From sequence record OQ921332.1: 64,000 nt of DNA. One strand, 5' to 3'. Made by a program: the position numbers and the translations under genes. Numbering within the stretch: the stretch's first letter is position 1; every line of letters starts with the position of its first letter. Below are positions 6,691-28,479 of the stretch, in pieces. The DNA comes from Escherichia phage vB_EcoP_PAS59. Below the pieces are notes generated by a model that saw only the letters and a list, made by a program, of their open reading frames with translations, had not been told where the DNA came from and did not search any database.

Positions 6691-7077
6691 TTGACATTGA
6701 CTATTTATTATGAGGCAGGGAATCAGCCAACCGCTTGCAAAGCATTAGTAGCGGATACCGTAATAAACAGAATGTCACAACGAAAACTGACTGCCGAGCA
6801 GGTTATAAATCAACGAAACCAGTTCGAGTGGATACCCGTCCTATTAAAGAAGGAGAAACCTTTTAAGCGTTATGTAAAGCTGATTCGTGATGATAATCCT
6901 CTGACGAAGAAGTCAATCAGAGAGAGCGAGTGGCTTGCAAGGCGTGCACTGAAGAAAGGTTATGTGCCTTTGTACAGCGGTACATACTTTCAGAGTAAGA
7001 GCGAAGGGGTGCCAAAGTGGTATACCAATCCAATGTATTGTGGTGATTTAGTGTTCAATAATAGTGCCCGTGATTGA
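6691..7077 (+). CDS. possible SleB-like cell-wall hydrolase domain protein
   Basis: ORF track (TTG start, no clear RBS); EAGNQ...VADTVINR resembles the cell-wall hydrolase motif. Confidence 0.3.
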   Translation: MTLTIYYEAGNQPTACKALVADTVINRMSQRKLTAEQVINQRNQFEWIPVLLKKEKPFKRYVKLIRDDNPLTKKSIRESEWLARRALKKGYVPLYSGTYFQSKSEGVPKWYTNPMYCGDLVFNNSARD

Positions 7078-14340: not shown

Positions 14341-14604
14341 AGAGCAGGTTATCCACAGATATTGGGTGATATCTATTTAATTGGCCTTAAAGCTTGGCTC
14401 TCTTAGGAGAGTCCTTTTTTAAGTTCAAAGAAGAGGTTGTATGGATAATAAGTTGAAAGCTAAATTCTTATTGGCAGCAATCTTTATTTGCTTAGCCACT
14501 GTAGGGTTTGTCAGGATGTACTCTTTTGCATCTTGTGAATTAAGCAAGAATGATAGAGGGTCTTACAACTGGCTAACCAATCAATGTGACAAACAGGAGA
14601 AGTT

Positions 14605-14967
14605 ATGAACCTACGCCCCATTAAAGGCCATGTGAACCTGTCTACGCTTCATAAAGTAGCAAATGATTTAGGTGGTATGGATGAGAATGATTTGGAGCAG
14701 AATTTGCTCTGGATTGCTAATGGCATCAAGGCGGCAAAGGCCAAAATGGCTCGTGCACAAGGTAAACTAAAAGCGAATAAATATCTTATTCGTCGTCGTA
14801 ATGTCTTGCCTCAGGATGTGGTGAGTTTAGCTTTATCGGGATATAAAGCGGCAGAGTTAGAACTTCAGGAAGCTGAATTTGAAAAGATGCGCTTCCAAGA
14901 GAACTATCGAAACTTCCGTAGTATTGACTACATTCGCAAATCTCTGGGCCTTCTGGTATCAGAGTAA
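14605..14967 (+). CDS. hypothetical protein
   Basis: ORF track. Confidence 0.5.
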   Translation: MNLRPIKGHVNLSTLHKVANDLGGMDENDLEQNLLWIANGIKAAKAKMARAQGKLKANKYLIRRRNVLPQDVVSLALSGYKAAELELQEAEFEKMRFQENYRNFRSIDYIRKSLGLLVSE

Positions 14968-14977
14968 AGAGGTAAAA

Positions 14978-16195
14978 ATGTTCCCTGTAACACTTCAAAG
15001 CTGGAAAGAATCAGAAGACGTTGTAACTGTTTGGCCTCCTTGTTATGGTTTCCTGAAAGCAGGTTACTATCAGGGTGGTGATTATGATGAAGATGAAGAT
15101 GGTTATCCTGACTACTACAACGCATATGACAGCAATTTTGGCTGGAATATCCGTATTAAGGTGTGGAGTGAGGGTATGATGGTTCGTCAAGGCACTGCTG
15201 AAGAGAATGTTCTCGAAAACATGATGCCTATGTCCGAAATCAAGTACATCTGGAACTCTGGTACACACCTTCCCGCTTATGGTGTAAAACGTTATGGCGA
15301 TAAAGAGCCTATTACCACTCAGTATTTCCGCGAAGGGTTGGAGAATGGAGACCCTCGTCCTCCGTCTCATGTAGAAACATGGGCAGAAGAAAACAACCGT
15401 CCTGATATTACTGATCGCGCTGTAATGGAAACCTTTGAAGCATTCATGGATAAAGACCTCGATTCATGTCTGGTGTGGCATGAAGCAGGATTCATGGGTG
15501 TTTGTACTGATGGTTGTCCTGCTGATCGCGCTCTGTTCTATCTGATGCTGAATCGCACATTCTATACAGATGATGAAAAATCTGCTGTGTATGAAATGTT
15601 GAACAAGATGTATAAGAAGGGCTGGTCTCCTTTAGCCTCTCTTGCATTCAGCCGACTGATCAACTCTTCAGTGGATGTGTTCGGTAACGAACGTGTTGCT
15701 TTAACAGGGAATGATTACGATTCCTGTATCTTCCAAGCATCTCTGTATACAGTGGGTGTTGGCAGTACAATGGTTGAACCTCGCCAGACCAAGTGGCGAC
15801 AGTGTGAATACACCGAAGGTGAAGGGCATCTTCGTGATGAAGACTTCCCCAGTCTGCTCTACCGTAGTGAAGGTGTGCGAGACTGTCGAGTGAATAACTC
15901 AATGTTCTTACCAATCCTTCTTCCTCAGTATTGCAATCTGCCGAATGGTGAACGTCCGGTCATCACAGAGAAGTCACTCTTGGTTGAATTTATCCGAGAA
16001 GTAGCTGAATCTGAAACATCTTTTGATAAAATTGTGTTCGGTTATAACTGGAACAATGAAACAGCTTCAGCTCGAAGCTACAACACGTATAACATTATCA
16101 GTAGTATGTCCAATGGACTGACAGGTAGTAATTATACAGTACGTCCCTCAGAAGAGTGGGAAAACATTTTGGAAAAATTATTCTTCAATAAATAG
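14978..16195 (+). CDS. large acidic Trp/Tyr-rich protein of unknown function (first gene of the amide-ligase block)
   Basis: ORF track 14879..16195; ATG 14978 behind AAGAGG. Confidence 0.55.
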   Translation: MFPVTLQSWKESEDVVTVWPPCYGFLKAGYYQGGDYDEDEDGYPDYYNAYDSNFGWNIRIKVWSEGMMVRQGTAEENVLENMMPMSEIKYIWNSGTHLPAYGVKRYGDKEPITTQYFREGLENGDPRPPSHVETWAEENNRPDITDRAVMETFEAFMDKDLDSCLVWHEAGFMGVCTDGCPADRALFYLMLNRTFYTDDEKSAVYEMLNKMYKKGWSPLASLAFSRLINSSVDVFGNERVALTGNDYDSCIFQASLYTVGVGSTMVEPRQTKWRQCEYTEGEGHLRDEDFPSLLYRSEGVRDCRVNNSMFLPILLPQYCNLPNGERPVITEKSLLVEFIREVAESETSFDKIVFGYNWNNETASARSYNTYNIISSMSNGLTGSNYTVRPSEEWENILEKLFFNK

Positions 16196-16203
16196 AGGCG
16201 AAT

Positions 16204-17154
16204 ATGTCAATCTCCGCATCGATTGCTCCGGTAACACCGGCAGAGGATTTCGGTGAGTCAGTGTTTAAAGGAAGGGCTTGCTTTGGTACTTTTAACTGTA
16301 TGCACATGTACTCTGTTACAGACATTAATGGCGACAGTCTTAGACAAACAAACCTTCGTGATAGAACTTCAGAAATTGAAGTTATTAACTTCTGGCCTCA
16401 CAATTTTTATGGCGTACCGTCTAAAGATATCGAAAGAGCTTTAGTTGAAGCAACAGACATTTTTAACTCAATGTCTTGCTATAAAGATATGTTCTCTGTC
16501 ACTTCGGTGAACTCTATTGCCGTGAACCTTCGAAACCATCCAGCAGACAAGGTGTTTACTGGACTAATGACCATCCGTAGCTATTTGGATGGTGATTTTA
16601 ATGGAATGGAGTTCCTTCAGGAAGGCGTACAAGACAAGGAAGAGTTGCTTAAGCGACAACGAATCGGTTTAGCTCTACGCCTAGCTGGTTTAAGTCGTAA
16701 CTTCTTTGGTCGCTGGTGTTATAGTAATGACGTAGACTCAACTGATGAGTCAGCAGCGACTTATTTTGATGGTGACATGAGTGCAATTGCATTTCTGCCA
16801 CTAATTTGCACCACTGATGAATTTTCTGAAAACGTATGGGTTCAGAATGTGTTCGGTGTTGATGATAACCGAGATGGTTATGTACGAAACCATAATGATG
16901 GAGTTCTCCGTCGTATGGCACGTCGTCGTGACCAAGACCCTGACCATTATGAGAGTATGAGTGAGTGGTTGCGTCTCTGGTCAACTTGTGCAGGTCACAA
17001 GCGAGAAGTATTAGATCAGCGTATGGACAGAATTACTGTTCGCAGTTTTATTGAACGTCTGATGCAAGCAGTACCTTCCTCAATGACACCAGAAGAAGCT
17101 GGTGCCCGTGTTGTTTCCCTTTTTGATGAACTCGTGGAGTATTACAATGACTAA
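16204..17154 (+). CDS. protein of unknown function
   Basis: ORF track; stop overlaps next start. Confidence 0.55.
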   Translation: MSISASIAPVTPAEDFGESVFKGRACFGTFNCMHMYSVTDINGDSLRQTNLRDRTSEIEVINFWPHNFYGVPSKDIERALVEATDIFNSMSCYKDMFSVTSVNSIAVNLRNHPADKVFTGLMTIRSYLDGDFNGMEFLQEGVQDKEELLKRQRIGLALRLAGLSRNFFGRWCYSNDVDSTDESAATYFDGDMSAIAFLPLICTTDEFSENVWVQNVFGVDDNRDGYVRNHNDGVLRRMARRRDQDPDHYESMSEWLRLWSTCAGHKREVLDQRMDRITVRSFIERLMQAVPSSMTPEEAGARVVSLFDELVEYYND

Positions 17155-17953
17155 GCGCGCTTTCCTTATTGGCTCTGACCCTGAAATGTTTGTTCGTACT
17201 GCTTCCGGTATTATCACCTCTGTGGCTGGTAAGCTGGGCTGTTCTAAAGATAATAAAATTGATCTGGCTCCTGATGTTCGTCTTCAAGAAGACAACGTTC
17301 TGGCTGAATTCGATATTAACCCACAGAAAGGGTTTGAAGCGTTTGATGATAATATTCAGCGTGGTATTGATCTGACTAACAAAGTTCTCAATGAACGTGG
17401 CATGGAGGCAGCACTTGGGATTAGCTCTCATGTGTTCACTTCAGAAGAACTTGAATCATTCCACCCGTCAGCTTTTGTATTTGGCTGTACTCCTGATTTC
17501 AATGCCTTCACTGGACAAAAGAACCCTTCACCAGTCGCAACCGATAAGGGTTTGCGTACTGCTGGGGGTCATGTGCACCTTGGTGTCTCCGGGACTTTAG
17601 AGATTACTCGACAAACTCAAATGATGTTGGGTGTGTTATGTGATTACTTCCTGTCCTTGCCAGCTGTGATCATGGATAAAGACACTCGTCGTAAAGAGTT
17701 GTACGGAAAGGCTTCTGCCATTCGCTACAAAGATTACGGTATTGAATATCGTTCTCTTTCTAACTTCTGGATTGGTGATAAGTCCACTCGCAAGTTTGTT
17801 TACGAGCAAGTGGATAAGGTTGTTCAGGGTTGTGATATGGAAGTGTTGATGTCACTTCACTCTCGCCTTCCAATTGAAAAGCTTCATAACATCATCAACA
17901 GCAACGATGTTAAAGAAGCGGATAAATTCTCCTCTAAACTCCAGATTGTATAA
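17147..17953 (+). CDS. glutamine-synthetase/GCS-like carboxylate-amine ligase (amidoligase), putative
   Basis: internal ATG of ORF track 17102..17953; motifs GSDPEMF, GGHVHLG, GIEYRSL in the order of the E..E / H.H / E.R motifs of YbdK-type ligases. Confidence 0.4.
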   Translation: MTKRAFLIGSDPEMFVRTASGIITSVAGKLGCSKDNKIDLAPDVRLQEDNVLAEFDINPQKGFEAFDDNIQRGIDLTNKVLNERGMEAALGISSHVFTSEELESFHPSAFVFGCTPDFNAFTGQKNPSPVATDKGLRTAGGHVHLGVSGTLEITRQTQMMLGVLCDYFLSLPAVIMDKDTRRKELYGKASAIRYKDYGIEYRSLSNFWIGDKSTRKFVYEQVDKVVQGCDMEVLMSLHSRLPIEKLHNIINSNDVKEADKFSSKLQIV

Positions 17954-17962
17954 GGTGATATT

Positions 17963-18589
17963 GTGAGCTTGTTAAGAGATTTTCAACACTATTATTGTGG
18001 AACATGGATTGCTCAGCGATCACCTGATGGTAAAAACCTCCCTCTATATGTGCTTGATGTTCGTCAGCAAGGTAACTTTGATATCGACGACTACTCACAC
18101 GACGCTGAAAGGTCTTTAGTGTTTGAGGCGGAACGCTGGACTAAAAACTCTGAAGGTCAGTTTGAACGTCAGATTGTTAGTAATATCCCAGTGTTTGATC
18201 ACAGCCTCATTCTAGAGTCTCCAGATGTAGGATACCTTCAGCATGGTAATAACATGGTGAGCTGGACCCATATCAACCCTGTTCGTCAGCGAGCTAAAGG
18301 CTTGATGGGGAATAAACTTCGTGGTGCTGCACCTTCTCTCGGACGTTCGATTCCGGGTGATTTGGTGTACAACTTGTTTAATCCAGAGTTTGAAGGGTTG
18401 GTTACTCGTTTCATCTATATCAACCCTGTCGATGGAAAAGTGTATTACAAAGGGGCTTACGTTGGAAACGTGCTTCTTGAAGCTGGCTATGGCGACAACG
18501 GTCGCCAATCTTTAAACCTTCTGGAGAAGTTCAAGCACATTTCTTCAGACCTGTCATCATATAATGTAGAGTTGGTGGAATCACTATGA
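17963..18589 (+). CDS. protein of unknown function
   Basis: ORF track; RBS AAGGTGA. Confidence 0.5.
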   Translation: MSLLRDFQHYYCGTWIAQRSPDGKNLPLYVLDVRQQGNFDIDDYSHDAERSLVFEAERWTKNSEGQFERQIVSNIPVFDHSLILESPDVGYLQHGNNMVSWTHINPVRQRAKGLMGNKLRGAAPSLGRSIPGDLVYNLFNPEFEGLVTRFIYINPVDGKVYYKGAYVGNVLLEAGYGDNGRQSLNLLEKFKHISSDLSSYNVELVESL

Positions 18590-19686
18590 CAACCGTAGCA
18601 CAAGTTTTTGGATACCGTAACCCTCGCTTATCTGAACCGCATCCAAGCATTGCTTTTCAGTGTGGTGTTGGTATTGAGTTAGAAGTCGAAGGTACTACTG
18701 ACATTGACGTTGATATGTGGGTTTGTACTGAAGACGGCTCTCTTCGTGATGGTTGTGAGTTAGTGTGTTCACGACCTTACAACGGTGAAGAATTACTTCG
18801 TGCTATTAACAATCTGAGTGAAGCAGTACAGGATTCTGGAGCCGAGGGGACTTGGCGCTGCTCCACTCACGTTCATATGGATATGCGGGACGCTGATAGT
18901 AATATCCTTAAGAAAGTTATTCTTGGGTGGACGTTCTATGAAAAGATGATGTTCAAATGTTCTGGATATCATCGTTACCGTAGTAACTTCTGCCCAGCTT
19001 TTGCTGTTGTTCAAGCTCAAGTTATGAATGCTTCATCAGCGTTCAACCGAGATGGGGAAGATTTCTTCCGTACTCTTGTTAATAGCTGGGACAAGTATAC
19101 CTCCCTTAACCTGTTGCCTCTATCTCAGTTTGGTTCTGTTGAGTTTCGTATTTCAGAGCCGAAGTGGAAAAAGAGTCAGCTGCTAAATCTGGTCAATCGC
19201 TTCTTGGTTCTCAAGAAACTGGCTGTTGAATATGCAGATTTAGATAATGAAGCTTATGTTGAGAAGTTGAATGAGCTGCGCTTCGCTCCTATGATTCAAC
19301 ATCTACCTCTAGACTATACTCCAAGAGATAGCGATCTCACTGAAGGGTATCGTCTTGCCCGTGATATTCTGTTCTGTCGTGAGCAATCTGTAACTTTGGT
19401 TGGTCGTGTTCGTGTGCAACAGACTGGCCCTGATGGTGAAGTCCTTATCAACTTACGTGACATGAATGACTTCTATGGTTTCTTGGGATATGTGCGCGGT
19501 AATGCCAACACTGTCTATGAAGAGATCATGACCTACTACACCCCTCAGATTGAAAGCACTCGAATCGCAACGGTTCGTGAAATTCGTCACATGTTTGCAT
19601 TGATGCGTGAATCAGGTAGCAGTGATAATAACATCACTGATTACATTCCAGACCATCTGGAAATGCAATTAGAACGACTGCTGTAA
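18586..19686 (+). CDS. glutamine-synthetase/GCS-like carboxylate-amine ligase (amidoligase), putative
   Basis: ORF track; motifs GIELEVEG, CSTHVHMD, SVEFRISE. Confidence 0.45.
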   Translation: MTTVAQVFGYRNPRLSEPHPSIAFQCGVGIELEVEGTTDIDVDMWVCTEDGSLRDGCELVCSRPYNGEELLRAINNLSEAVQDSGAEGTWRCSTHVHMDMRDADSNILKKVILGWTFYEKMMFKCSGYHRYRSNFCPAFAVVQAQVMNASSAFNRDGEDFFRTLVNSWDKYTSLNLLPLSQFGSVEFRISEPKWKKSQLLNLVNRFLVLKKLAVEYADLDNEAYVEKLNELRFAPMIQHLPLDYTPRDSDLTEGYRLARDILFCREQSVTLVGRVRVQQTGPDGEVLINLRDMNDFYGFLGYVRGNANTVYEEIMTYYTPQIESTRIATVREIRHMFALMRESGSSDNNITDYIPDHLEMQLERLL

Positions 19687-19763
19687 CACAATGGGCGCTC
19701 TGATAAAGGGCGCATTTAAAGGTTAATTAGATGAAAGGGTTTACCCTTCAGGTGGATTAGAAA

Positions 19764-21797
19764 ATTTGTGGTATCGTATTAGCTGGCGGCAACATGACCT
19801 CAACAGATTTGGATATTTTCAACCAACTTCTGTATGCTGGTGTTTTCCGTGGACAGCACTCAACTGGTGTGTTTGGTCAGCGTAAAGGTGAAAAGCAAGT
19901 CTTCTCTTATAAAGAAGCTCTTCCTTCTTATGCTTTTATGCTCCAGACAGAATATACAAATATTACCAAAGGGCTTACGAACTACGTAGTTCCTCCTTCG
20001 TGGATTGTTGGTCACAGCCGACATGCCACTCGTGGGGCTGTCAATGCTCGAAATGCTCACCCATTTACTCACGGGGATATTACTCTGGTTCATAATGGAA
20101 CCCTGTTAGATCAAGATCTCCTTCCTGACAGTAAGCGTTTCGAAGTTGATAGTGAAAACATCTGCCACTCAATTAATACCATTGGAGCAGCAGAGACTAT
20201 CCAAAAACTGGATGGTGCATTCACTTTGATTTGGCATGATGCTAAAGACAACACGCTTCACATTATCCGTAATGATGAGCGTCCTTTCCACCTAGCCCGT
20301 TGTGGTTTAGATTGGTTTGGGGCTTCTGAAGAAGCTATGCTTATGTGGATTTTAGAGCGTTCTAAATCCCACAAGAACCGTATCAATGACCACTTCGAAT
20401 GTAAAGTGGGAACTGAGTATATCTTTGATGTGTCTAACAGTCGTATGACTCTGGTTCAAGAGGTGGAGCACAAGCTTCCGGTTTTTACGATAACGAGTCG
20501 CTGGGGCGGCTATTACTCGAACTCCTCTCTATATCAGAACCGACAGACAAACAAATCAAGCAGCAGCACAAGCGACATTTACGGAAACAAAGACGACAAG
20601 CCCGGCGTGACAAGCGGAGACATTCGTCGTCGTAAAGCGATTGAAGACCAGAACAAACTGGCTGCCGATCGTGGTCTTCCTTATCGTCGTGATGGTCGTG
20701 TGGATATTATTCCTCACGAGTTCCATGCTTATAACAACACAGATCGTGGTAAGATGGTTGGTTACATCTACGACGATAAAGCCCAAGAGTATGTCGAAGG
20801 GGATGTTCACAACGTAGCCAAAGATGAATATCTTAAGGCTCTTGAAAACCCAAAGGTAGTATATCGCGGGACGATTGCTTGTATCTCCGAAGTGGACAGT
20901 ATGATTCGCCTCGTACTAACTTCAGGGCTGTTTGTTGATGCTACAGATAAGGAGCCTCAAAGCACTACTGCTGATTTTGATGATGATATCCCTTTTGATG
21001 CAGAGGACTCCTTCATCACTAAAAATGGTGTAGAAGTCACTCGTAAGTTCTGGGAATCTCACTCTCATGGAGATTGTGGTGGCTGTGATAAGCACATTGA
21101 CTGGAAAGATGCTCGTAAGGCTGTGTTTGCTTACCAAGCGTACTGGCATCCAGAATGCTTCGAAGCGTTGTCTAAAACCTCTGAAGAGGAAGAAGACGTA
21201 CCTTTGGGTGTATGTGCTGTCTGTGGTGAAGTCAAGACTGATTTCGAGTTTGACAACGAAATGAGTAAACTTCGTGGTGAAGATATTTGTTATATCTGCT
21301 CCAAAGAAATCAAAGATAAAGTAAAAAATGTTACTCTGTCTGAAGGTTATATTTGGACTAAAGCAGTAGACACAACTAATCCGCGTCGTCCTGAAGTGGC
21401 TGTTCGTGTTGATGAACGTATGCTTAGCCGTATGATTGTAATGGTCAGCTCAGCAAAACGTTCAGGGGATATTACACTCGCAGATGTTCCTAACTCATAT
21501 TTGGAAAAACGTGGTGGCGATACTTATGCCATTTCCGTTTACGGTCCAAAGAATGCCCCAAAGGAGGTACCCGCTGAGAAAGCGGAGACATTTCCAGAAA
21601 AATCAACCTCTCTCCGAAAAACAGTTGTCAGTTATGACGGACAACGAACAGCTGAGTTCACAAAAGCCCTCTGGACTTCAATTGGGTTTTGTGCAGTCTG
21701 TTATAAACAAATTCCGTGGCGTGATGCAGAAACTTGCTCACTAAACAAAGAAAATAGAGTGATCTGTAATTCAGATTACTGTAAAGGTAAACACTAA
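19764..21797 (+). CDS. class-II (Ntn) glutamine amidotransferase with Cys-rich C-terminal extension; start proposed at ATT 19764
   Basis: ORF track gives 19794..21797, but the in-frame codons just upstream encode (I)CGIVLAGGN, the canonical N-terminal Cys of PurF/GlmS-type amidotransferases; RGQ motif; C-terminal CxxC clusters. Confidence 0.5.
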   Translation: MCGIVLAGGNMTSTDLDIFNQLLYAGVFRGQHSTGVFGQRKGEKQVFSYKEALPSYAFMLQTEYTNITKGLTNYVVPPSWIVGHSRHATRGAVNARNAHPFTHGDITLVHNGTLLDQDLLPDSKRFEVDSENICHSINTIGAAETIQKLDGAFTLIWHDAKDNTLHIIRNDERPFHLARCGLDWFGASEEAMLMWILERSKSHKNRINDHFECKVGTEYIFDVSNSRMTLVQEVEHKLPVFTITSRWGGYYSNSSLYQNRQTNKSSSSTSDIYGNKDDKPGVTSGDIRRRKAIEDQNKLAADRGLPYRRDGRVDIIPHEFHAYNNTDRGKMVGYIYDDKAQEYVEGDVHNVAKDEYLKALENPKVVYRGTIACISEVDSMIRLVLTSGLFVDATDKEPQSTTADFDDDIPFDAEDSFITKNGVEVTRKFWESHSHGDCGGCDKHIDWKDARKAVFAYQAYWHPECFEALSKTSEEEEDVPLGVCAVCGEVKTDFEFDNEMSKLRGEDICYICSKEIKDKVKNVTLSEGYIWTKAVDTTNPRRPEVAVRVDERMLSRMIVMVSSAKRSGDITLADVPNSYLEKRGGDTYAISVYGPKNAPKEVPAEKAETFPEKSTSLRKTVVSYDGQRTAEFTKALWTSIGFCAVCYKQIPWRDAETCSLNKENRVICNSDYCKGKH

Positions 21798-21808
21798 GAG
21801 GTATAGTT

Positions 21809-22042
21809 ATGGAAGTTCGTAAACTGATGTTGGATAACGTGGTAACTACCCGTCGTATTCCGATGACAAGCACAGGATGTGATAACCTCCGAGCAATTCA
21901 GAAGTGGATGCAAGAAGGTATTGGGAAGCTGGTTGACTCTCCAGTAGAAATCCCTTTTCCAACCGTTATCAATAACGTGTTGGCTGACTATGTTAAAATG
22001 AAGGGGATTAAAGTTGAGCCTCATGTCAAGCAAGGGAGCTAA
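21809..22042 (+). CDS. hypothetical small protein
   Basis: ORF track. Confidence 0.35.
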   Translation: MEVRKLMLDNVVTTRRIPMTSTGCDNLRAIQKWMQEGIGKLVDSPVEIPFPTVINNVLADYVKMKGIKVEPHVKQGS

Positions 22043-22244
22043 GCCTCACCTGACAATGCTGGAGTATCAACAACTCCGACTTCAACAACTGGTAACGGAG
22101 CAGCGAAAGCTGTATCCGTTTGCTTTTAACTTAATCGACTCTCCAAGTGATGCCCAAGAAGACGAAATGTTCGCCGAGTATTGGGCAATCGAAGCTAAAA
22201 TTCAATCCTGTCGTAACGAAATTCTTAAACTAAAAGGTATCTAA
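22014..22244 (+). CDS. hypothetical small protein
   Basis: ORF track. Confidence 0.3.
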   Translation: MSLMSSKGAKPHLTMLEYQQLRLQQLVTEQRKLYPFAFNLIDSPSDAQEDEMFAEYWAIEAKIQSCRNEILKLKGI

Positions 22245-22246
22245 AA

Positions 22247-23494
22247 ATGACTACTCGTATCCGTGTTCTTCCGTATGGCCCGTCTGATTCTGTTAACGCT
22301 CTGGTATCTGCTATCAGTGATACTATCCGTGATGAACGTATCAACGCTAACATAATGGGTCTTCTTTCAGAGAACAGTCGCTGGCGTTCTCGTGAGGATG
22401 ATGTGGTTGTGAACTACGGGAACCGTCGCTATCCTGAATCCTTCTTTGGTTCTGCAACTGTCCTTAACCGTACCGCAGCCTTACATATGGCAGCGAACAA
22501 ACGTCGTGCTTTCAGCGTGATGGACCAAGCAGGTGTTAAAACTGTTGAGTATACAGATGTTCAAGAGATTGCTCAGGAGTGGTCAAACTCTGGCAACATT
22601 GTGTATGAACGTCATGAACTGACTGGTCACTCTGGTTCGGGTATCGTTGTTGTTGAGCCTCGTGATTCAATTGGTCAAGCTGAACTGTACACCAAAGGTA
22701 TTCAAGGTCCACGTCGTGAATGGCGTGTCCATGTGTTCAAAGGTGTTATCACCTATGTTCAGAAGAAGATTCGTCGTAACGGCTATCGTGAAGACCCTAA
22801 CTATCGTGAAGATGTTCGTAACCATCACACTGGTTGGGTTTACTCAAGTTCCTTCACAGACGCTCCAAATGATGCATCTCTGATCAACGCAGTGAAGGCC
22901 GTTGAATCGATGGGTCTGGATTTTGGTGCAGTTGATATCATTACCAAAGGCCGAGAAGCATGGGTACTGGAAGTTAACACAGCACCGGGCCTGACTGGTA
23001 CAACTCTGGATATCTACCGTCACAACATCCTTGAGTTTGTTAAAGCTCAAAATCCTCTCTATACTCCTCAGTATAAAGTGGGTTACCAGACTCCTGTTGA
23101 AGCTCCAATCGAAGACGGAGATGGAGAGTTGGTAGATGACAGCGAAAGCGCTAATGATGAAAACTTTGCACTGGAAGGTCAGGTAGCACAGCCGGTTGAG
23201 TTGGTAGATGTAGTTCCTGAAGAGATGCAACTGGAAGGTCAGATGAATACTCAAACTATTCGTAATGCACCTACTGGTTACACTTTATCTCGTGGTTATT
23301 GGATTGCAGATATCCGTCATGTCCATAACAACCTGCAACCGAATGCAATGTCTTCCAATGTCATTTTGTTCTGTGATGGTCGTAACTTCTACCGTAGTGG
23401 CTGGAACGTTCCGGTCAATCCAGTCCAGATTCATAACCCTCGCAAGTTAGAATCTGTCAATGTTGAAGGTAGCGAAGTAGCAGTAACTCTGTAA
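22247..23494 (+). CDS. ATP-grasp ligase (RimK-like) with acidic C-terminal extension
   Basis: ORF track; ERHELTGHSGSGIVVVEP, EWRVHVFKG, DFGAVDII...WVLEVNTAPG. Confidence 0.55.
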   Translation: MTTRIRVLPYGPSDSVNALVSAISDTIRDERINANIMGLLSENSRWRSREDDVVVNYGNRRYPESFFGSATVLNRTAALHMAANKRRAFSVMDQAGVKTVEYTDVQEIAQEWSNSGNIVYERHELTGHSGSGIVVVEPRDSIGQAELYTKGIQGPRREWRVHVFKGVITYVQKKIRRNGYREDPNYREDVRNHHTGWVYSSSFTDAPNDASLINAVKAVESMGLDFGAVDIITKGREAWVLEVNTAPGLTGTTLDIYRHNILEFVKAQNPLYTPQYKVGYQTPVEAPIEDGDGELVDDSESANDENFALEGQVAQPVELVDVVPEEMQLEGQMNTQTIRNAPTGYTLSRGYWIADIRHVHNNLQPNAMSSNVILFCDGRNFYRSGWNVPVNPVQIHNPRKLESVNVEGSEVAVTL

Positions 23495-23520
23495 TTAAAT
23501 TAAACAAAAAGGAATTTGTA

Positions 23521-23763
23521 ATGTTGTCTATCGAAGATTTGATCAGCCGTGGAATGACCGAAGAAAAAGAGCCTCTGATTGTAGGCTCTCGTAAAGCTAT
23601 CAACCAACTCTGTGAAGAGTTCGGTATCACAAATAAGAGAATGATTGGTAATCAGTTCTCTGCAATCATCACCTTCCTCAAACGAGGTGATAAATATTCA
23701 ATGGAAAGTGCTGAGCGTATCATCGCAATTGCACAAGCAGATAAGGGAGTAACAAGTCTGTGA
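23521..23763 (+). CDS. hypothetical small protein
   Basis: ORF track. Confidence 0.4.
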   Translation: MLSIEDLISRGMTEEKEPLIVGSRKAINQLCEEFGITNKRMIGNQFSAIITFLKRGDKYSMESAERIIAIAQADKGVTSL

Positions 23764-23945
23764 ATAAATATACAATCATGTTTCGTACAGTAACATCAGA
23801 AGGGAATATTCAATCTCTGGATATTCAAGCAGACCGCTTTGAATCACTTGGAACAAATGTCAATTTCTTCCGAGGCGCAGAGCTAGTAGGTACGTTCCAA
23901 TCTGATGTATTAACTGGTGTGATCAAACACTTCGAAGTAGAATAA
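23760..23945 (+). CDS. hypothetical small protein
   Basis: ORF track; followed by hairpin AGCCTC...GAGGCT. Confidence 0.4.
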   Translation: MNKYTIMFRTVTSEGNIQSLDIQADRFESLGTNVNFFRGAELVGTFQSDVLTGVIKHFEVE

Positions 23946-24011
23946 TTTGCTTTAGCCTCTTCGAAAGAGGAGGCTAGTTCGAATTTAACTGAAACACTAA
24001 AAGGTAATATA

Positions 24012-24443
24012 ATGTCTGATAAAGTACTAGTTGCAACTTACGGAAGCTTGAGAAAAGGTCAACACAACCACGCTATCAATGCTCGTGCAGGTGGTGTGTC
24101 TATTGGTGAAGGGTGGACAGTAAACAACTGTAACCTGTATCAGTATTGCACAGCATACTTCCCAAGTGTATCTTTGGAGCATGACAGCAATGGTAAGCCT
24201 GTTCGTGTAGAAGTCTTTGAAACAACCCAAGCTGGTCTGGAAGGTCCGTATGACGGTCTGGAAGGTCATCGTGGTAATGATAACCCATACACCTTTTATA
24301 AGCGTACACTGATTCCAGTATTATTGGACAGCGGTGAAACTGTGGAAGCGTGGATTTATCACATCGACGAAGAACAAGATGTTCTGGTTGAATCGGGTGA
24401 CTGGACAGCATATCTGGCAGGTGAGAAGGATGACAGTAACTGA
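24012..24443 (+). CDS. gamma-glutamyl cyclotransferase-like (GGCT/AIG2 fold) protein
   Basis: ORF track; N-terminal YGSLRKG motif. Confidence 0.5.
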   Translation: MSDKVLVATYGSLRKGQHNHAINARAGGVSIGEGWTVNNCNLYQYCTAYFPSVSLEHDSNGKPVRVEVFETTQAGLEGPYDGLEGHRGNDNPYTFYKRTLIPVLLDSGETVEAWIYHIDEEQDVLVESGDWTAYLAGEKDDSN

Positions 24444-27006: not shown

Positions 27007-28479
27007 ATGATTAAGATTCCATTATCTGAATTGAACCTTCAAGAAGGAGAAGCCCTCAGTGTAGGGCTTGACCTGATTCGTAATTTGATCAGAGATAACG
27101 TAGTCCCTGATGGCATCTATCCTGTTATTGCAGGTGGTGCTATCCGTGATACGTTCTTTCAAAATAGAACTCCGAATGATGTTGATATCTTCCTAGTTCA
27201 AGGAGGATTACGTTGGAACGCTCGTCAGGAAAATAGCCCTGCTAACGTAGGTAATGCTGCACTTTTCCTTGACAACTTCTTATCTTGGACAGAAAGTAAA
27301 GGGCTTCAGGTTACATCTCGACTAATTCAGCCTGTTAACGGGACAACCTATGCTGAAGCGCTTTTCACTTTCCAAGAGATTCTGGAAATCGAGATTGATC
27401 AAGTTAAAATCCAGATGATGATTAATCTACCTTTGGATATGGATACTTTAAGCCGTCGCTTCCCTATGATCTGTCAAGGGTTTATGACTCTTGGTAATCT
27501 GTATGTGTCAAACGAAGGTTTGTTTGCAATGTCATACACTCGTGACATTCCTGTGGTGTCCAGTCGTGAAATGAAGTATGTTCACAAGAAGTGGCCTGAA
27601 GCAACTGTTGCAGTTTATAGCAGTTCTACCGAATATATGCACCTTGCAATGGGAGCTTTCGGTGAGCCAGAAGTTCACCTGATTAGTGATTTAGTTGGAC
27701 CTATGGCTGGTGTAAATTTATATCAGAATCAGCGTCGTCATTATACCCTGAAGATGATGGAAACTACATTAAACATTCCTCAGGAAAGGGGTCGTAGTTA
27801 TCTGGACGAGGAAGTTAACCTACAGACAGAATGGTCTAGTGGATTAACCACTATAGGTGCTGAAGCAATTACACGACCTTGGACTCCGGGAACTAACAGA
27901 CGAGATCTTCAAGCTTTTAATGAAGAAACTTCTCGAACTGTTCGAGGAGGTGTTGTAGGGTATAACGTACAACCTCATGAAAGACCTCGTGATACTTTCA
28001 CTGGTAGTTTTGGTAGTGCACACTCTTCTGGAATGGATACTCGTACATGGCATGTCCAAGGAGGAACTGCTCGTCCTATTCCCTCTCCGTCAATGGATGA
28101 TTTGCAGCGTTCTCGTCGTTCATGGGAAACAGTAAGCTCTGTTGTTCAGGGTCTACGTGCTAGTGATATTGAACGTGTAGAAGTTGGTGATTTGCCAACC
28201 TCTACAGAAGATCGAGTATCAGCTATAGCGGCTCGTGAAGCTGCTCATATTGGTTTTGCATCATTAGCTAATGACGCTAACGAAGCTCCTCGACCTGTTG
28301 GTCGTCGTAATGGTCTAGCTCACTCTGACACTGCACTTGGTGCAGAACTACGAGCAGCAGCTCGTGAGCTATCTGGTGAGCTTCACAACAACCTGGCAGG
28401 TGTTACACTATCTCGTGAAACAGCTCGTAATATGATTAATAATTTGGCATCATCTGTACAAGGAAACAGAAACTCATGA
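27007..28479 (+). CDS. Pol-beta superfamily nucleotidyltransferase (CCA-adding/poly(A) polymerase-like head) with low-complexity C-terminal half
   Basis: ORF track; GGAIRDTFFQNRTPNDVDIF matches the GGxVRD...DxD signature. Confidence 0.5.
   Translation: MIKIPLSELNLQEGEALSVGLDLIRNLIRDNVVPDGIYPVIAGGAIRDTFFQNRTPNDVDIFLVQGGLRWNARQENSPANVGNAALFLDNFLSWTESKGLQVTSRLIQPVNGTTYAEALFTFQEILEIEIDQVKIQMMINLPLDMDTLSRRFPMICQGFMTLGNLYVSNEGLFAMSYTRDIPVVSSREMKYVHKKWPEATVAVYSSSTEYMHLAMGAFGEPEVHLISDLVGPMAGVNLYQNQRRHYTLKMMETTLNIPQERGRSYLDEEVNLQTEWSSGLTTIGAEAITRPWTPGTNRRDLQAFNEETSRTVRGGVVGYNVQPHERPRDTFTGSFGSAHSSGMDTRTWHVQGGTARPIPSPSMDDLQRSRRSWETVSSVVQGLRASDIERVEVGDLPTSTEDRVSAIAAREAAHIGFASLANDANEAPRPVGRRNGLAHSDTALGAELRAAARELSGELHNNLAGVTLSRETARNMINNLASSVQGNRNS

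Follow-up and report, generated by a model that had tools for sequence, protein, structure and literature searches.

Escherichia phage vB_EcoP_PAS59 carries, at positions 14978-24443 of the 64,000-nucleotide stretch of DNA analyzed here (sequence record OQ921332.1, hereafter the window), a densely packed block of 12 open reading frames (ORFs), all on the plus strand, in which two amidoligases, a glutamine amidotransferase, an ATP-grasp ligase and a gamma-glutamyl cyclotransferase (GGCT)-like protein are encoded together. The question raised by this locus is what such a set of amide-forming and amide-removing enzymes builds in the infected cell, and on which target. The block represents the phiEco32-type amidoligase cassette and is nearly identical to a system that was first predicted computationally in phiEco32 by Iyer et al. 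in 2009 (as cited in PMC10580990, PMC6256558 and PMC5498523). Already known as a prediction, the cassette is genuine, is confined almost entirely to phages, and shows very wide conservation. Its enzymes are proposed, with moderate confidence, to constitute a cytoplasmic, ATP-driven pathway that assembles and trims a gamma-glutamyl or short-peptide group on a single acceptor. The additions made from the window are incremental, namely, an ATT start codon for the amidotransferase gene, the membership of three large ORFs (X1, X2, and X3) in the cassette, a putative new fold in X1, and the restriction of the module to phages.

The 9.5-kb interval 14978-24443 matched 98 phage records. Sixteen Escherichia phages, including EK010, E20-1, SU7, and the BASEL phages Bas86 and Bas87, were 95-97% identical over the full interval, six further records reached about 90% identity, and the remaining 76, which are more distant and include phiEco32-like Kuravirus phages such as SU10, matched in part at roughly 75%. 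Because of this match pattern among the records, the window is assigned to a Gordonclarkvirinae (phiEco32-like) podophage of the Suseptimavirus branch. The annotated relatives Bas86, SU7, and EK010 share the gene order of the window, with a run of small early genes as the 5' neighbors of the block and with genes for a primase/helicase, a polymerase exonuclease subunit, a "nucleotidyltransferase" and a dCTP deaminase downstream of it. The phiEco32 cassette has the same genes in the same order, its proteins are 41-84% identical to those of the window, and the ATT start of the amidotransferase is common to both, so that nothing essential differs between them. An earlier note on this DNA, made from the sequence alone, had described the combination as predicted computationally with no known biochemistry, which is borne out by the citing literature (PMC10580990, PMC6256558, PMC5498523). 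The phiEco32 system, which gave PF14395 its Pfam name "Phage phiEco32-like COOH.NH2 ligase-type 2", went unrecognized in it.

The enzyme families named in that note, two amidoligases, a class-II amidotransferase, an ATP-grasp ligase and a GGCT-like protein, were verified by searches of Pfam, PHROG, PDB, and NCBIfam. The ORF at 17147-17953 encodes a glutamine-synthetase-like amidoligase of the COOH-NH2 ligase type 2 family (PF14395 COOH-NH2_lig, E 2.2e-8, 34 bits versus a cut-off of 25; PHROG 3815, 1e-112); its translation contains the motifs GSDPEMF, GGHVHLG, and GIEYRSL as reported, and a set of D/E/H/H/R/E/R residues is invariant in the alignment of type-2 ligases. The second glutamine-synthetase-like carboxylate-amine ligase, at 18586-19686, belongs to Amidoligase_2 (PF12224, E 1e-8, 35.8 bits versus a cut-off of 22; PHROG 7469, 6e-142) and carries the motifs GIELEVEG, STHVHMD, and SVEFRISE. 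No solved relative was found in PDB for either of these two ligases. The ORF at 22247-23494 encodes an ATP-grasp ligase of the RimK/MptN alpha-L-glutamate-ligase type, supported by PHROG 2599 (2e-170), RimK in PDB (1e-3), and the NCBIfam models MptN (4e-9) and rimK_fam (6e-7). Its ligase core spans approximately residues 70-255, and an extra C-terminal domain follows at approximately residues 340-406, with PHROG 20552 matching the C terminus. The three ligases are predicted ATP-dependent amide-bond formers. The last gene of the block, at 24012-24443, encodes a GGACT/AIG2-like gamma-glutamyl(amine) cyclotransferase with a YGSLRKG motif (PF06094, E 9e-16).

The class-II N-terminal nucleophile (Ntn) glutamine amidotransferase belongs to the GATase_6/7/4 class (Pfam GATase_6, E 3e-14, 53.8 bits). 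Its start had been set 30 nucleotides (nt) too far downstream, at the ATG at 19794, which gives a protein without the N-terminal Cys that defines Ntn amidotransferases. At 19764, 30 nt upstream in frame, the codons ATT-TGT-GGT-ATC-GTA yield the N terminus (M)CGIVLAGG, and AGGTGGA (19750-19756, plus strand) lies before the ATT at a suitable Shine-Dalgarno distance. Because only the ATT start supplies the catalytic Cys as residue 2, the gene is predicted to begin at ATT 19764 and not at ATG 19794, extending over 19764-21797 and encoding 677 amino acids (aa). With this start, the alignment to the NCBIfam glmS-type model begins at residue 2, opposite model position 2, and the HNG and DSE motifs of the family are present. 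Among 78 loci of the IMG/VR database in which the amidotransferase was detected, the gene begins with ATG-TGT in 67 and with ATT-TGT in eight; the four examples of ATT-TGT shown are the closest relatives of the window, including phiEco32. Judged from these sequences, the rare AUU initiation codon is conserved for this gene among the closest relatives of the window, and by analogy with infC it suggests translational down-tuning of the amidotransferase. The GenBank annotations of SU7 and EK010 use the downstream ATG, by which the catalytic Cys is lost. The Cys-rich C-terminal extension that had been described was also found; it comprises about 450 aa, is lineage specific, and has three Cys-rich zinc-ribbon-like motifs and a weak LIM match.

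Whether these enzymes form a unit was analyzed across phages, as the earlier note had suggested. A search of IMG/VR based on the type-2 ligase alignment yielded over 540 related stretches; 80 loci from among them were retrieved and scanned with profile hidden Markov models built from six lineages, and co-occurrence was scored in the 70 loci that extend 7 kb or more beyond the type-2 ligase on its downstream side. Amidoligase_2, the amidotransferase and the ATP-grasp ligase accompany the type-2 ligase in all 70, and the order is nearly always type-2 ligase, Amidoligase_2, amidotransferase and ATP-grasp. The four core enzymes are a near-obligate co-occurring unit across phages. In addition, a tblastn search with Amidoligase_2 matched 293 GenBank phage records, with hosts including Pseudomonas, Escherichia, Aeromonas, Vibrio, Proteus, Salmonella, Cronobacter, and Pseudoalteromonas. 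With these numbers, the cassette is among the most widespread phage-specific enzyme modules without a known function, and phages considered for therapy against E. coli and Pseudomonas (Kuravirus, Bruynoghevirus) are among its carriers.

The same cassette order was found in LUZ24 (gp14-gp22) and in Proteus phage 3H10_20 (Grimontviridae), and also in distant metagenomic phage contigs of 30-100 kb in which X1 is only 27-32% identical. In Pseudoalteromonas phage HP1 and Pseudomonas phage O4 (Zobellviridae), the core of ligase, X3, ligase, and ATP-grasp is kept, with the amidotransferase located upstream. The window fits this pattern, with a conserved same-strand order in the early or middle region of a virulent podophage, beside the replication genes. 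The gp14-gp22 block of LUZ24 and PaP3 (Bruynoghevirus) resembles the window in having two proteins of about 320 aa with an N-terminal C-F-G, the type-2 ligase, the X3-like gp17, and Amidoligase_2, followed by the amidotransferase, a small protein, the ATP-grasp ligase, GGCT and then primase/helicase. Its enzymes are only 30-40% identical to those of the window, however, and the homology of X1 and X2 is visible by motifs only; the amidotransferase has 510 aa and lacks the long Cys-rich extension (677 aa in the window), and the ATP-grasp ligase has 294 aa and lacks the C-terminal domain (415 aa in the window).

In 100,044 bacterial and archaeal species, represented by one genome each, the type-2 ligase was found in 15 loci only, nearly all of them on contigs of 1-68 kb from metagenome-assembled genomes (MAGs), with three on contigs from named strains or isolates; most of the longer contigs carry further cassette genes. 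Because the type-2 ligase is nearly absent from these genomes, the module looks like a phage invention and not like a borrowed host pathway. As a clue to function, the bacterial genomic context was uninformative, these few loci being nearly all small MAG contigs with other cassette genes. The cassette contigs L100, L107, and L108 were binned to archaeal (Halobacteriales, Altiarchaeales, and Aenigmatarchaeota) and candidate-phyla-radiation MAGs. True archaeal viruses among the cassette contigs would argue against a murein target, and this carriage was given no weight as such evidence, the "Halobacteriales" contig having a GC content of 32% and being evidently mis-binned. In larger metagenomic relatives (L004-L006, L008, and L009), genes for TerD, a vWA-TerF-like protein, TerC, NAMPT/NAPRTase, and phosphoribosyl pyrophosphate synthetase lie directly 5' of the cassette; an additional NUDIX gene lies upstream in L009, and a "tellurite resistance protein" is encoded nearby in the Proteus phage.

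Three large ORFs, X1 (14978-16195, 405 aa), X2 (16204-17154, 316 aa), and X3 (17963-18589, 208 aa, GTG start), had been described as matching no recognized family. This holds insofar as no match was obtained in Pfam, NCBIfam, or PDB sequences, and PHROG matches were only to families of unknown function. What had been missed is that, by their conservation, all three are members of the cassette; published accounts count seven genes and name the enzyme genes alone (PMC5498523, PMC6256558). X1 is phage specific and appears to have a new fold, with the invariant residues C22-Y-G-F, D183-R184 (in PADR), R193, W273, Q275, H284, and R286; no fold match to thymidine-hypermodification enzymes was found for it. 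X2 belongs to a narrow phage-specific family, with only 22 relatives in a profile search among 1.84 billion representative proteins, none of which links it to a known family. The two are the fastest-evolving genes of the block, X1 being the fastest: identity to the phiEco32 orthologues is 41% for X1 and 54% for X2, versus 81% for the type-2 ligase, 70% for Amidoligase_2 and 93% for the primase/helicase. They share, in the same order, an N-terminal C-[YF]-G, PAD[RK], an Arg 10 residues on, W.Q, and G[HY].R[DN], which in X2 read C-F-G, PADK, R, W.Q, and GY.RN. An N-terminal C-[YFW]-G also occurs in LUZ24 gp14 and gp15, in both Proteus proteins, and in HP1 gp38; it was present in the upstream ORFs of 22 of 63 IMG/VR loci, versus 17 of 668 other large ORFs taken as background. 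X1 and X2 are probably a paralogue pair with a new fold and a conserved Cys, present in about one-third of the cassette lineages.

X3 is encoded between the two amidoligase genes, and in 77 of 79 loci these genes are separated by an open frame of 120 aa or longer (median, 213 aa). The protein looks noncatalytic, with small SH3/Tudor/Sm/KOW-like beta-barrels and a flexible basic loop, R-Q-x-[KR]-[KRQ]-G, that recurs almost universally; among 72 homologues, only R108 and G113 of this loop are near-universal. A function of X3 as a carrier with an acceptor lysine, comparable to EF-P, lipoyl domains, or LysW, was rejected, the loop Lys being replaced by Arg or Gln across these homologues.

Known pathways provide the model for the chemistry. 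Ligases resembling glutamine synthetase or gamma-glutamylcysteine synthetase (PuuA, GshA, and EgtA) form gamma-glutamyl-amine or other carboxylate-amine bonds, ligases of the RimK/MptN/CofF group add alpha-glutamate, Ntn amidotransferase folds deliver ammonia or hydrolyze gamma-glutamyl amides (EgtC), and enzymes of the GGACT/BtrG type release gamma-glutamyl groups from amines as 5-oxoproline. In the pairs PuuA/PuuD, EgtA/EgtC, and BtrJ/BtrG, a gamma-glutamyl amide is added by a ligase of the first kind or of the ATP-grasp type and removed by a hydrolase with an Ntn or amidotransferase fold or by a GGCT-fold cyclotransferase; in butirosin synthesis, the cyclotransferase BtrG strips the protecting group in a deprotection step that follows on the ATP-grasp ligase BtrJ. 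By analogy, the type-2 COOH-NH2 ligase, Amidoligase_2, and the RimK/MptN-like ATP-grasp enzyme of the cassette would extend a single acceptor step by step through amide or peptide bonds, at least some of them likely gamma-glutamyl. The amidotransferase would transfer ammonia from glutamine to amidate a carboxylate or would hydrolyze a gamma-glutamyl amide, and the GGACT-like enzyme would take gamma-glutamyl off an amine as 5-oxoproline for trimming or deprotection. X3 may be a noncatalytic subunit, and X1 and X2, in this lineage, may be specificity or transfer factors facing a variable host component. No membrane-spanning hydrophobic segment was found in any cassette protein, which fits a cytoplasmic ATP-dependent chemistry. 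The acceptor is more likely a macromolecule- or precursor-linked amine than a free metabolite, and the pathway most likely serves in conflict with the host or with rival phages and not in housekeeping.

The proposed pathway builds on what the sequences show, namely, which genes are present and to which enzyme families they belong, an N-terminal catalytic Cys, soluble proteins, a core that co-occurs obligately, and a module restricted to phages; the sequence in which the enzymes act, the gamma-glutamyl chemistry, and what X1, X2, and X3 contribute are inferred. A multienzyme pathway for a gamma-glutamyl or peptide-like amide, as already suggested in the earlier note, is supported by the domain assignments and the near-obligate co-occurrence, with the gamma-glutamyl part by analogy. 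The sole experimental hint comes from the directed evolution of a Pseudomonas aeruginosa phage, where each of two evolved phages had acquired missense mutations in its amidoligase and amidotransferase genes (PMC11450229). Several points weigh against the pathway. For the PF14395 and PF12224 ligases, the gamma-glutamyl chemistry is an analogy drawn from other families. The Pfam RimK model scores just below its cut-off on the ATP-grasp ORF (E 3e-4, 20.8 versus 21 bits). GGACT was detected in 45 of the 70 loci and was undetected in about one-third. The comparison of X1 with X2 by hhalign was not significant (E 0.07-0.09, probability below 1%). The variable Lys of the X3 loop leaves no obvious acceptor site, and it is speculative that the loop, R-Q-x-[KR]-[KR]-G, holds an anionic substrate or docks the ligases. 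Finally, a literature search, in which the original papers of 2008-2013 were represented by those citing them, found no biochemical or genetic test of the cassette.

The alpha-L-glutamate ligases RimK, MptN, and CofF are the best family and PDB matches of the ATP-grasp ligase, and the Mg/ATP-binding E-x-N region is conserved in it; in contrast to them, the enzyme of the window scores far under the equivalog cut-offs (36 versus 350 bits) and has the extra C-terminal domain. There is no orthology at the sequence level to the butirosin, putrescine, and ergothioneine pathways, the EgtC match reaching 16 bits, and the carrier proteins and tailoring enzymes of these pathways are absent from the block. 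In a comparison with graspetides, DUF7195 and the 76-aa ORF were found 5' of the ATP-grasp gene, many loci left no room for a small ORF, and no core-peptide repeat was evident.

Other targets were weighed against the same evidence. If peptidoglycan precursors were modified, residues would be added or amidated on UDP-MurNAc-peptide or lipid II, and the wall would become refractory to lysins from superinfecting phages or to autolysins of the host. Related chemistry is known from the ATP-grasp D-aspartate ligase Aslfm and from the class-II amidotransferases LtsA and AsnB1, which amidate meso-diaminopimelate or iso-Asp. The cassette proteins are all cytoplasmic, as precursor modification needs, and a cell-wall hydrolase gene (6691-7077) lies in the same early region. 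According to PMC6256558, PMC5498523, and PMC10580990, this hypothesis goes back to Iyer et al. (2009) and Hardies et al. (2013); the later name, "peptidoglycan modification cassette" (Hardies 2013; Duhaime 2017), has been applied to RIO-1, phiEco32, 7-11, PA11, tf, MR299-2, LUZ24, PaP3, and CW02 (PMC5498523), a role against superinfection has been proposed (PMC10580990), and the label, which stems from prediction, has been in use for more than 10 years. Yet the block has no Mur-ligase, Fem, or transpeptidase-like component, no membrane protein, and nothing else specific for murein. None of its ORFs could be assigned to AsnB1/LtsA, MurT/GatD, or Aslfm, Ddl models reaching 18-21 bits versus cut-offs of about 245, and the asparagine-synthase model covers the amidotransferase domain alone with 18.8 bits versus a cut-off of 267. 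Moreover, during the short cycle of a strictly lytic phage, only newly inserted murein would be altered. The substrates of GGACT enzymes are L-gamma-glutamyl amines and not D-iso-glutamate. A peptidoglycan target is considered unlikely. A reading in which a peptide tag is attached to or edited on one particular protein, either of the host (ribosomal protein S6, RNA polymerase, or a defense protein) or of the phage, receives a similarly low estimate; the ATP-grasp and amidoligase enzymes would attach glutamate or other residues, GGACT would allow their removal, and X1 and X2 would be the adaptors to the target. GGACT enzymes split epsilon-(gamma-glutamyl)lysine. The ATP-grasp ligase is nearest to RimK, the glutamylator of ribosomal protein S6, but its closest NCBIfam match is MptN, a small-molecule ligase. 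The rapid divergence of X1 and X2 is as expected at a host interface, and the amidotransferase and the ATP-grasp ligase carry extra noncatalytic domains; the missense mutations of the two evolved P. aeruginosa phages (PMC11450229) also count in favor of this reading. On the other side, no candidate acceptor was identified, the Lys of the X3 loop is Arg or Gln in many homologues, and the small ORFs, with the C termini ...HVKQGS, ...LKLKGI, ...KGVTSL, and ...HFEVE, lack acidic tails of the S6 or LysW type; no LysW/LysX family match was found in NCBIfam.

A free gamma-glutamyl peptide or polyamine-like metabolite, which might help with redox balance or osmotic stress, act as a signal, or inhibit functions of the host or of competitors, is rather less likely. 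The enzyme set mirrors glutathione metabolism (a gamma-glutamylcysteine-synthetase-like ligase, an ATP-grasp ligase, and a gamma-glutamyl cyclotransferase) as well as PuuA/PuuD and EgtA/EgtC, MptN-type ligases act on cofactors, and the larger relatives have genes for nucleotide/NAD salvage and Ter proteins just 5' of the cassette. Nevertheless, no block ORF matched the GshA or GshB equivalogs of NCBIfam, so that glutathione-type synthesis was not indicated, and no transporter, methyltransferase, oxidoreductase, or pyridoxal phosphate enzyme accompanies the core in the lineages examined; a near-constant open frame between the ligases, here the nonenzymatic-looking X3, is unusual for a simple metabolite pathway. 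Hypermodification of DNA or of a nucleotide precursor, with an amino-acid or amide side chain on a base and with X3 and the zinc-ribbon extension of the amidotransferase binding nucleic acid, is regarded as improbable. The KOW/Sm/Tudor-like barrels and basic loop of X3 and the zinc-ribbon-like motifs of the amidotransferase are typical features of nucleic acid binders, and in many lineages the genes for the primase/helicase and the polymerase exonuclease follow directly downstream of the cassette. On some metagenomic contigs, thymidine-hypermodification genes occur together with genes for amidoligases and amidotransferases (PMC8989533), and Gordonclarkvirinae are remarkably resistant to restriction without a known modification pathway (BASEL, PMC11990801). 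In thymidine-hypermodification clusters (Lee et al. 2018, 2021), phage biosynthetic enzymes are likewise located near replication genes; however, their defining enzymes are absent from the block, as no 5-hydroxymethyldeoxyuridine kinase, aGPT-Pplase, hydroxymethylase, glycosylase-like transferase, or TET/JBP domain was found in its ORFs with Pfam and NCBIfam. Restriction sites are strongly avoided in the 64-kb window: CCWGG occurs twice versus 91 times expected, GATC 125 versus 277 times, and PstI, SacI, BamHI, NcoI, and SphI sites are absent versus 10-20 expected; SalI sites are also absent (range for the set, 4-20), and KpnI has one site versus 12. The avoidance of CCWGG, GATC, and 6-bp palindromes suggests that the phage DNA is exposed to restriction enzymes and not globally protected. 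DNA of Pseudomonas phage Delta, a member of Bruynoghevirus, the genus of the cassette carriers LUZ24 and PaP3, and itself among the Amidoligase_2 tblastn matches, is cut by BamHI (PMC8540360). Sites for EcoRI (15), EcoRV (21), EcoKI (5), and EcoP1 (110) are not depleted, so that site loss does not explain the resistance to EcoRI and EcoRV and was rejected as its full explanation; together with the resistance reported for BASEL phages, this indicates that an as yet unidentified anti-restriction mechanism exists. DNA hypermodification, if true, would be a new, amidoligase-based class and would explain the restriction resistance of Gordonclarkvirinae.

Identification of the product of the assembly-and-trimming pathway proposed here would add new phage biochemistry and could prove to be a mechanism of host takeover, superinfection exclusion, or anti-restriction. 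The problem is now tractable because isolates infecting E. coli K-12 (BASEL Bas86-Bas93) carry the cassette, and the corrected amidotransferase start and the membership of X1, X2, and X3 are needed for the design of constructs.

The ORFs that had been listed are present on the plus strand at their coordinates, and several junctions overlap or nearly abut (17147/17154, 18586/18589, 22014/22042, and 23760/23763), the Amidoligase_2 start overlapping the X3 stop in an ATGA. The count of ten genes was too low by two, the extra ones being small conserved ORFs that include 21809-22042, 22014-22244, 23521-23763 and the more poorly conserved 23760-23945. The first of these encodes a DUF7195 protein of 77 aa (PF23825, E 3e-19) that is 84% identical to its phiEco32 counterpart; the domain is present in the large-genome and LUZ24-like lineages and is not universal (22 of 70 IMG/VR loci). 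The ORF at 22014-22244 (73-76 aa; PHROG 13464, 6e-42) is annotated in Bas86, SU7, and EK010, and its true start is probably the ATG at 22023. Between the ATP-grasp and GGCT genes lie an 80-aa ORF at 23521-23763 (PHROG 8339), with 41-75% identity in three of the four relatives compared, and a 61-aa ORF at 23760-23945. Just 5' of X1, a 120-aa ORF on the plus strand (14605-14967), for which a Pfam search gave no match, keeps its position in distant relatives, being 62% identical to phiEco32 and 33% identical to metagenomic locus L004 at the identical position.

A terminator-like hairpin with a T-run at 14396-14413 (plus strand), upstream of the block and equivalent in place to an annotated terminator of SU7, is probably the 5' boundary of the transcription unit. 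Because no convincing intrinsic terminator was found inside the block, it is probably cotranscribed with the downstream replication genes. The best sigma-70-like promoter match of the region, at 23985-24013 (TTAACT, 17-nt spacer, and TATAAT), overlaps the GGCT start codon at 24012, and SU7 has an annotated promoter at the equivalent place. A transcript from this promoter would begin within the GGCT gene, and the promoter therefore probably serves the downstream replication genes.

HNH homing-endonuclease genes interrupt the cassette in close relatives, and the window carries neither of the two insertions. In Bas86 and SU7, the COOH-NH2 ligase gene has an HNH gene inserted close to its 5' end, the Bas86 coding sequence being annotated as a two-piece join, and in EK010, an HNH gene lies just 5' of the GGCT gene (counterpart in the window, 23945-24012). 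In the early region 5' of the cassette, the cell-wall hydrolase gene mentioned above encodes a SleB-like protein (PF07486) and is accompanied by genes for a phage lipoprotein (PF24052, 10341-10667) and a ProQ/FinO-like RNA-binding protein (PF04352, 13259-13687), all three annotated as "hypothetical" in the relatives. The 490-aa "nucleotidyltransferase" at 27007-28479, beside the dCTP deaminase gene, gave no match in Pfam or NCBIfam and is 33% identical to its phiEco32 counterpart, versus 93% for the neighboring primase/helicase; its possible involvement in DNA modification has been suggested for the BASEL phages (PMC11990801).

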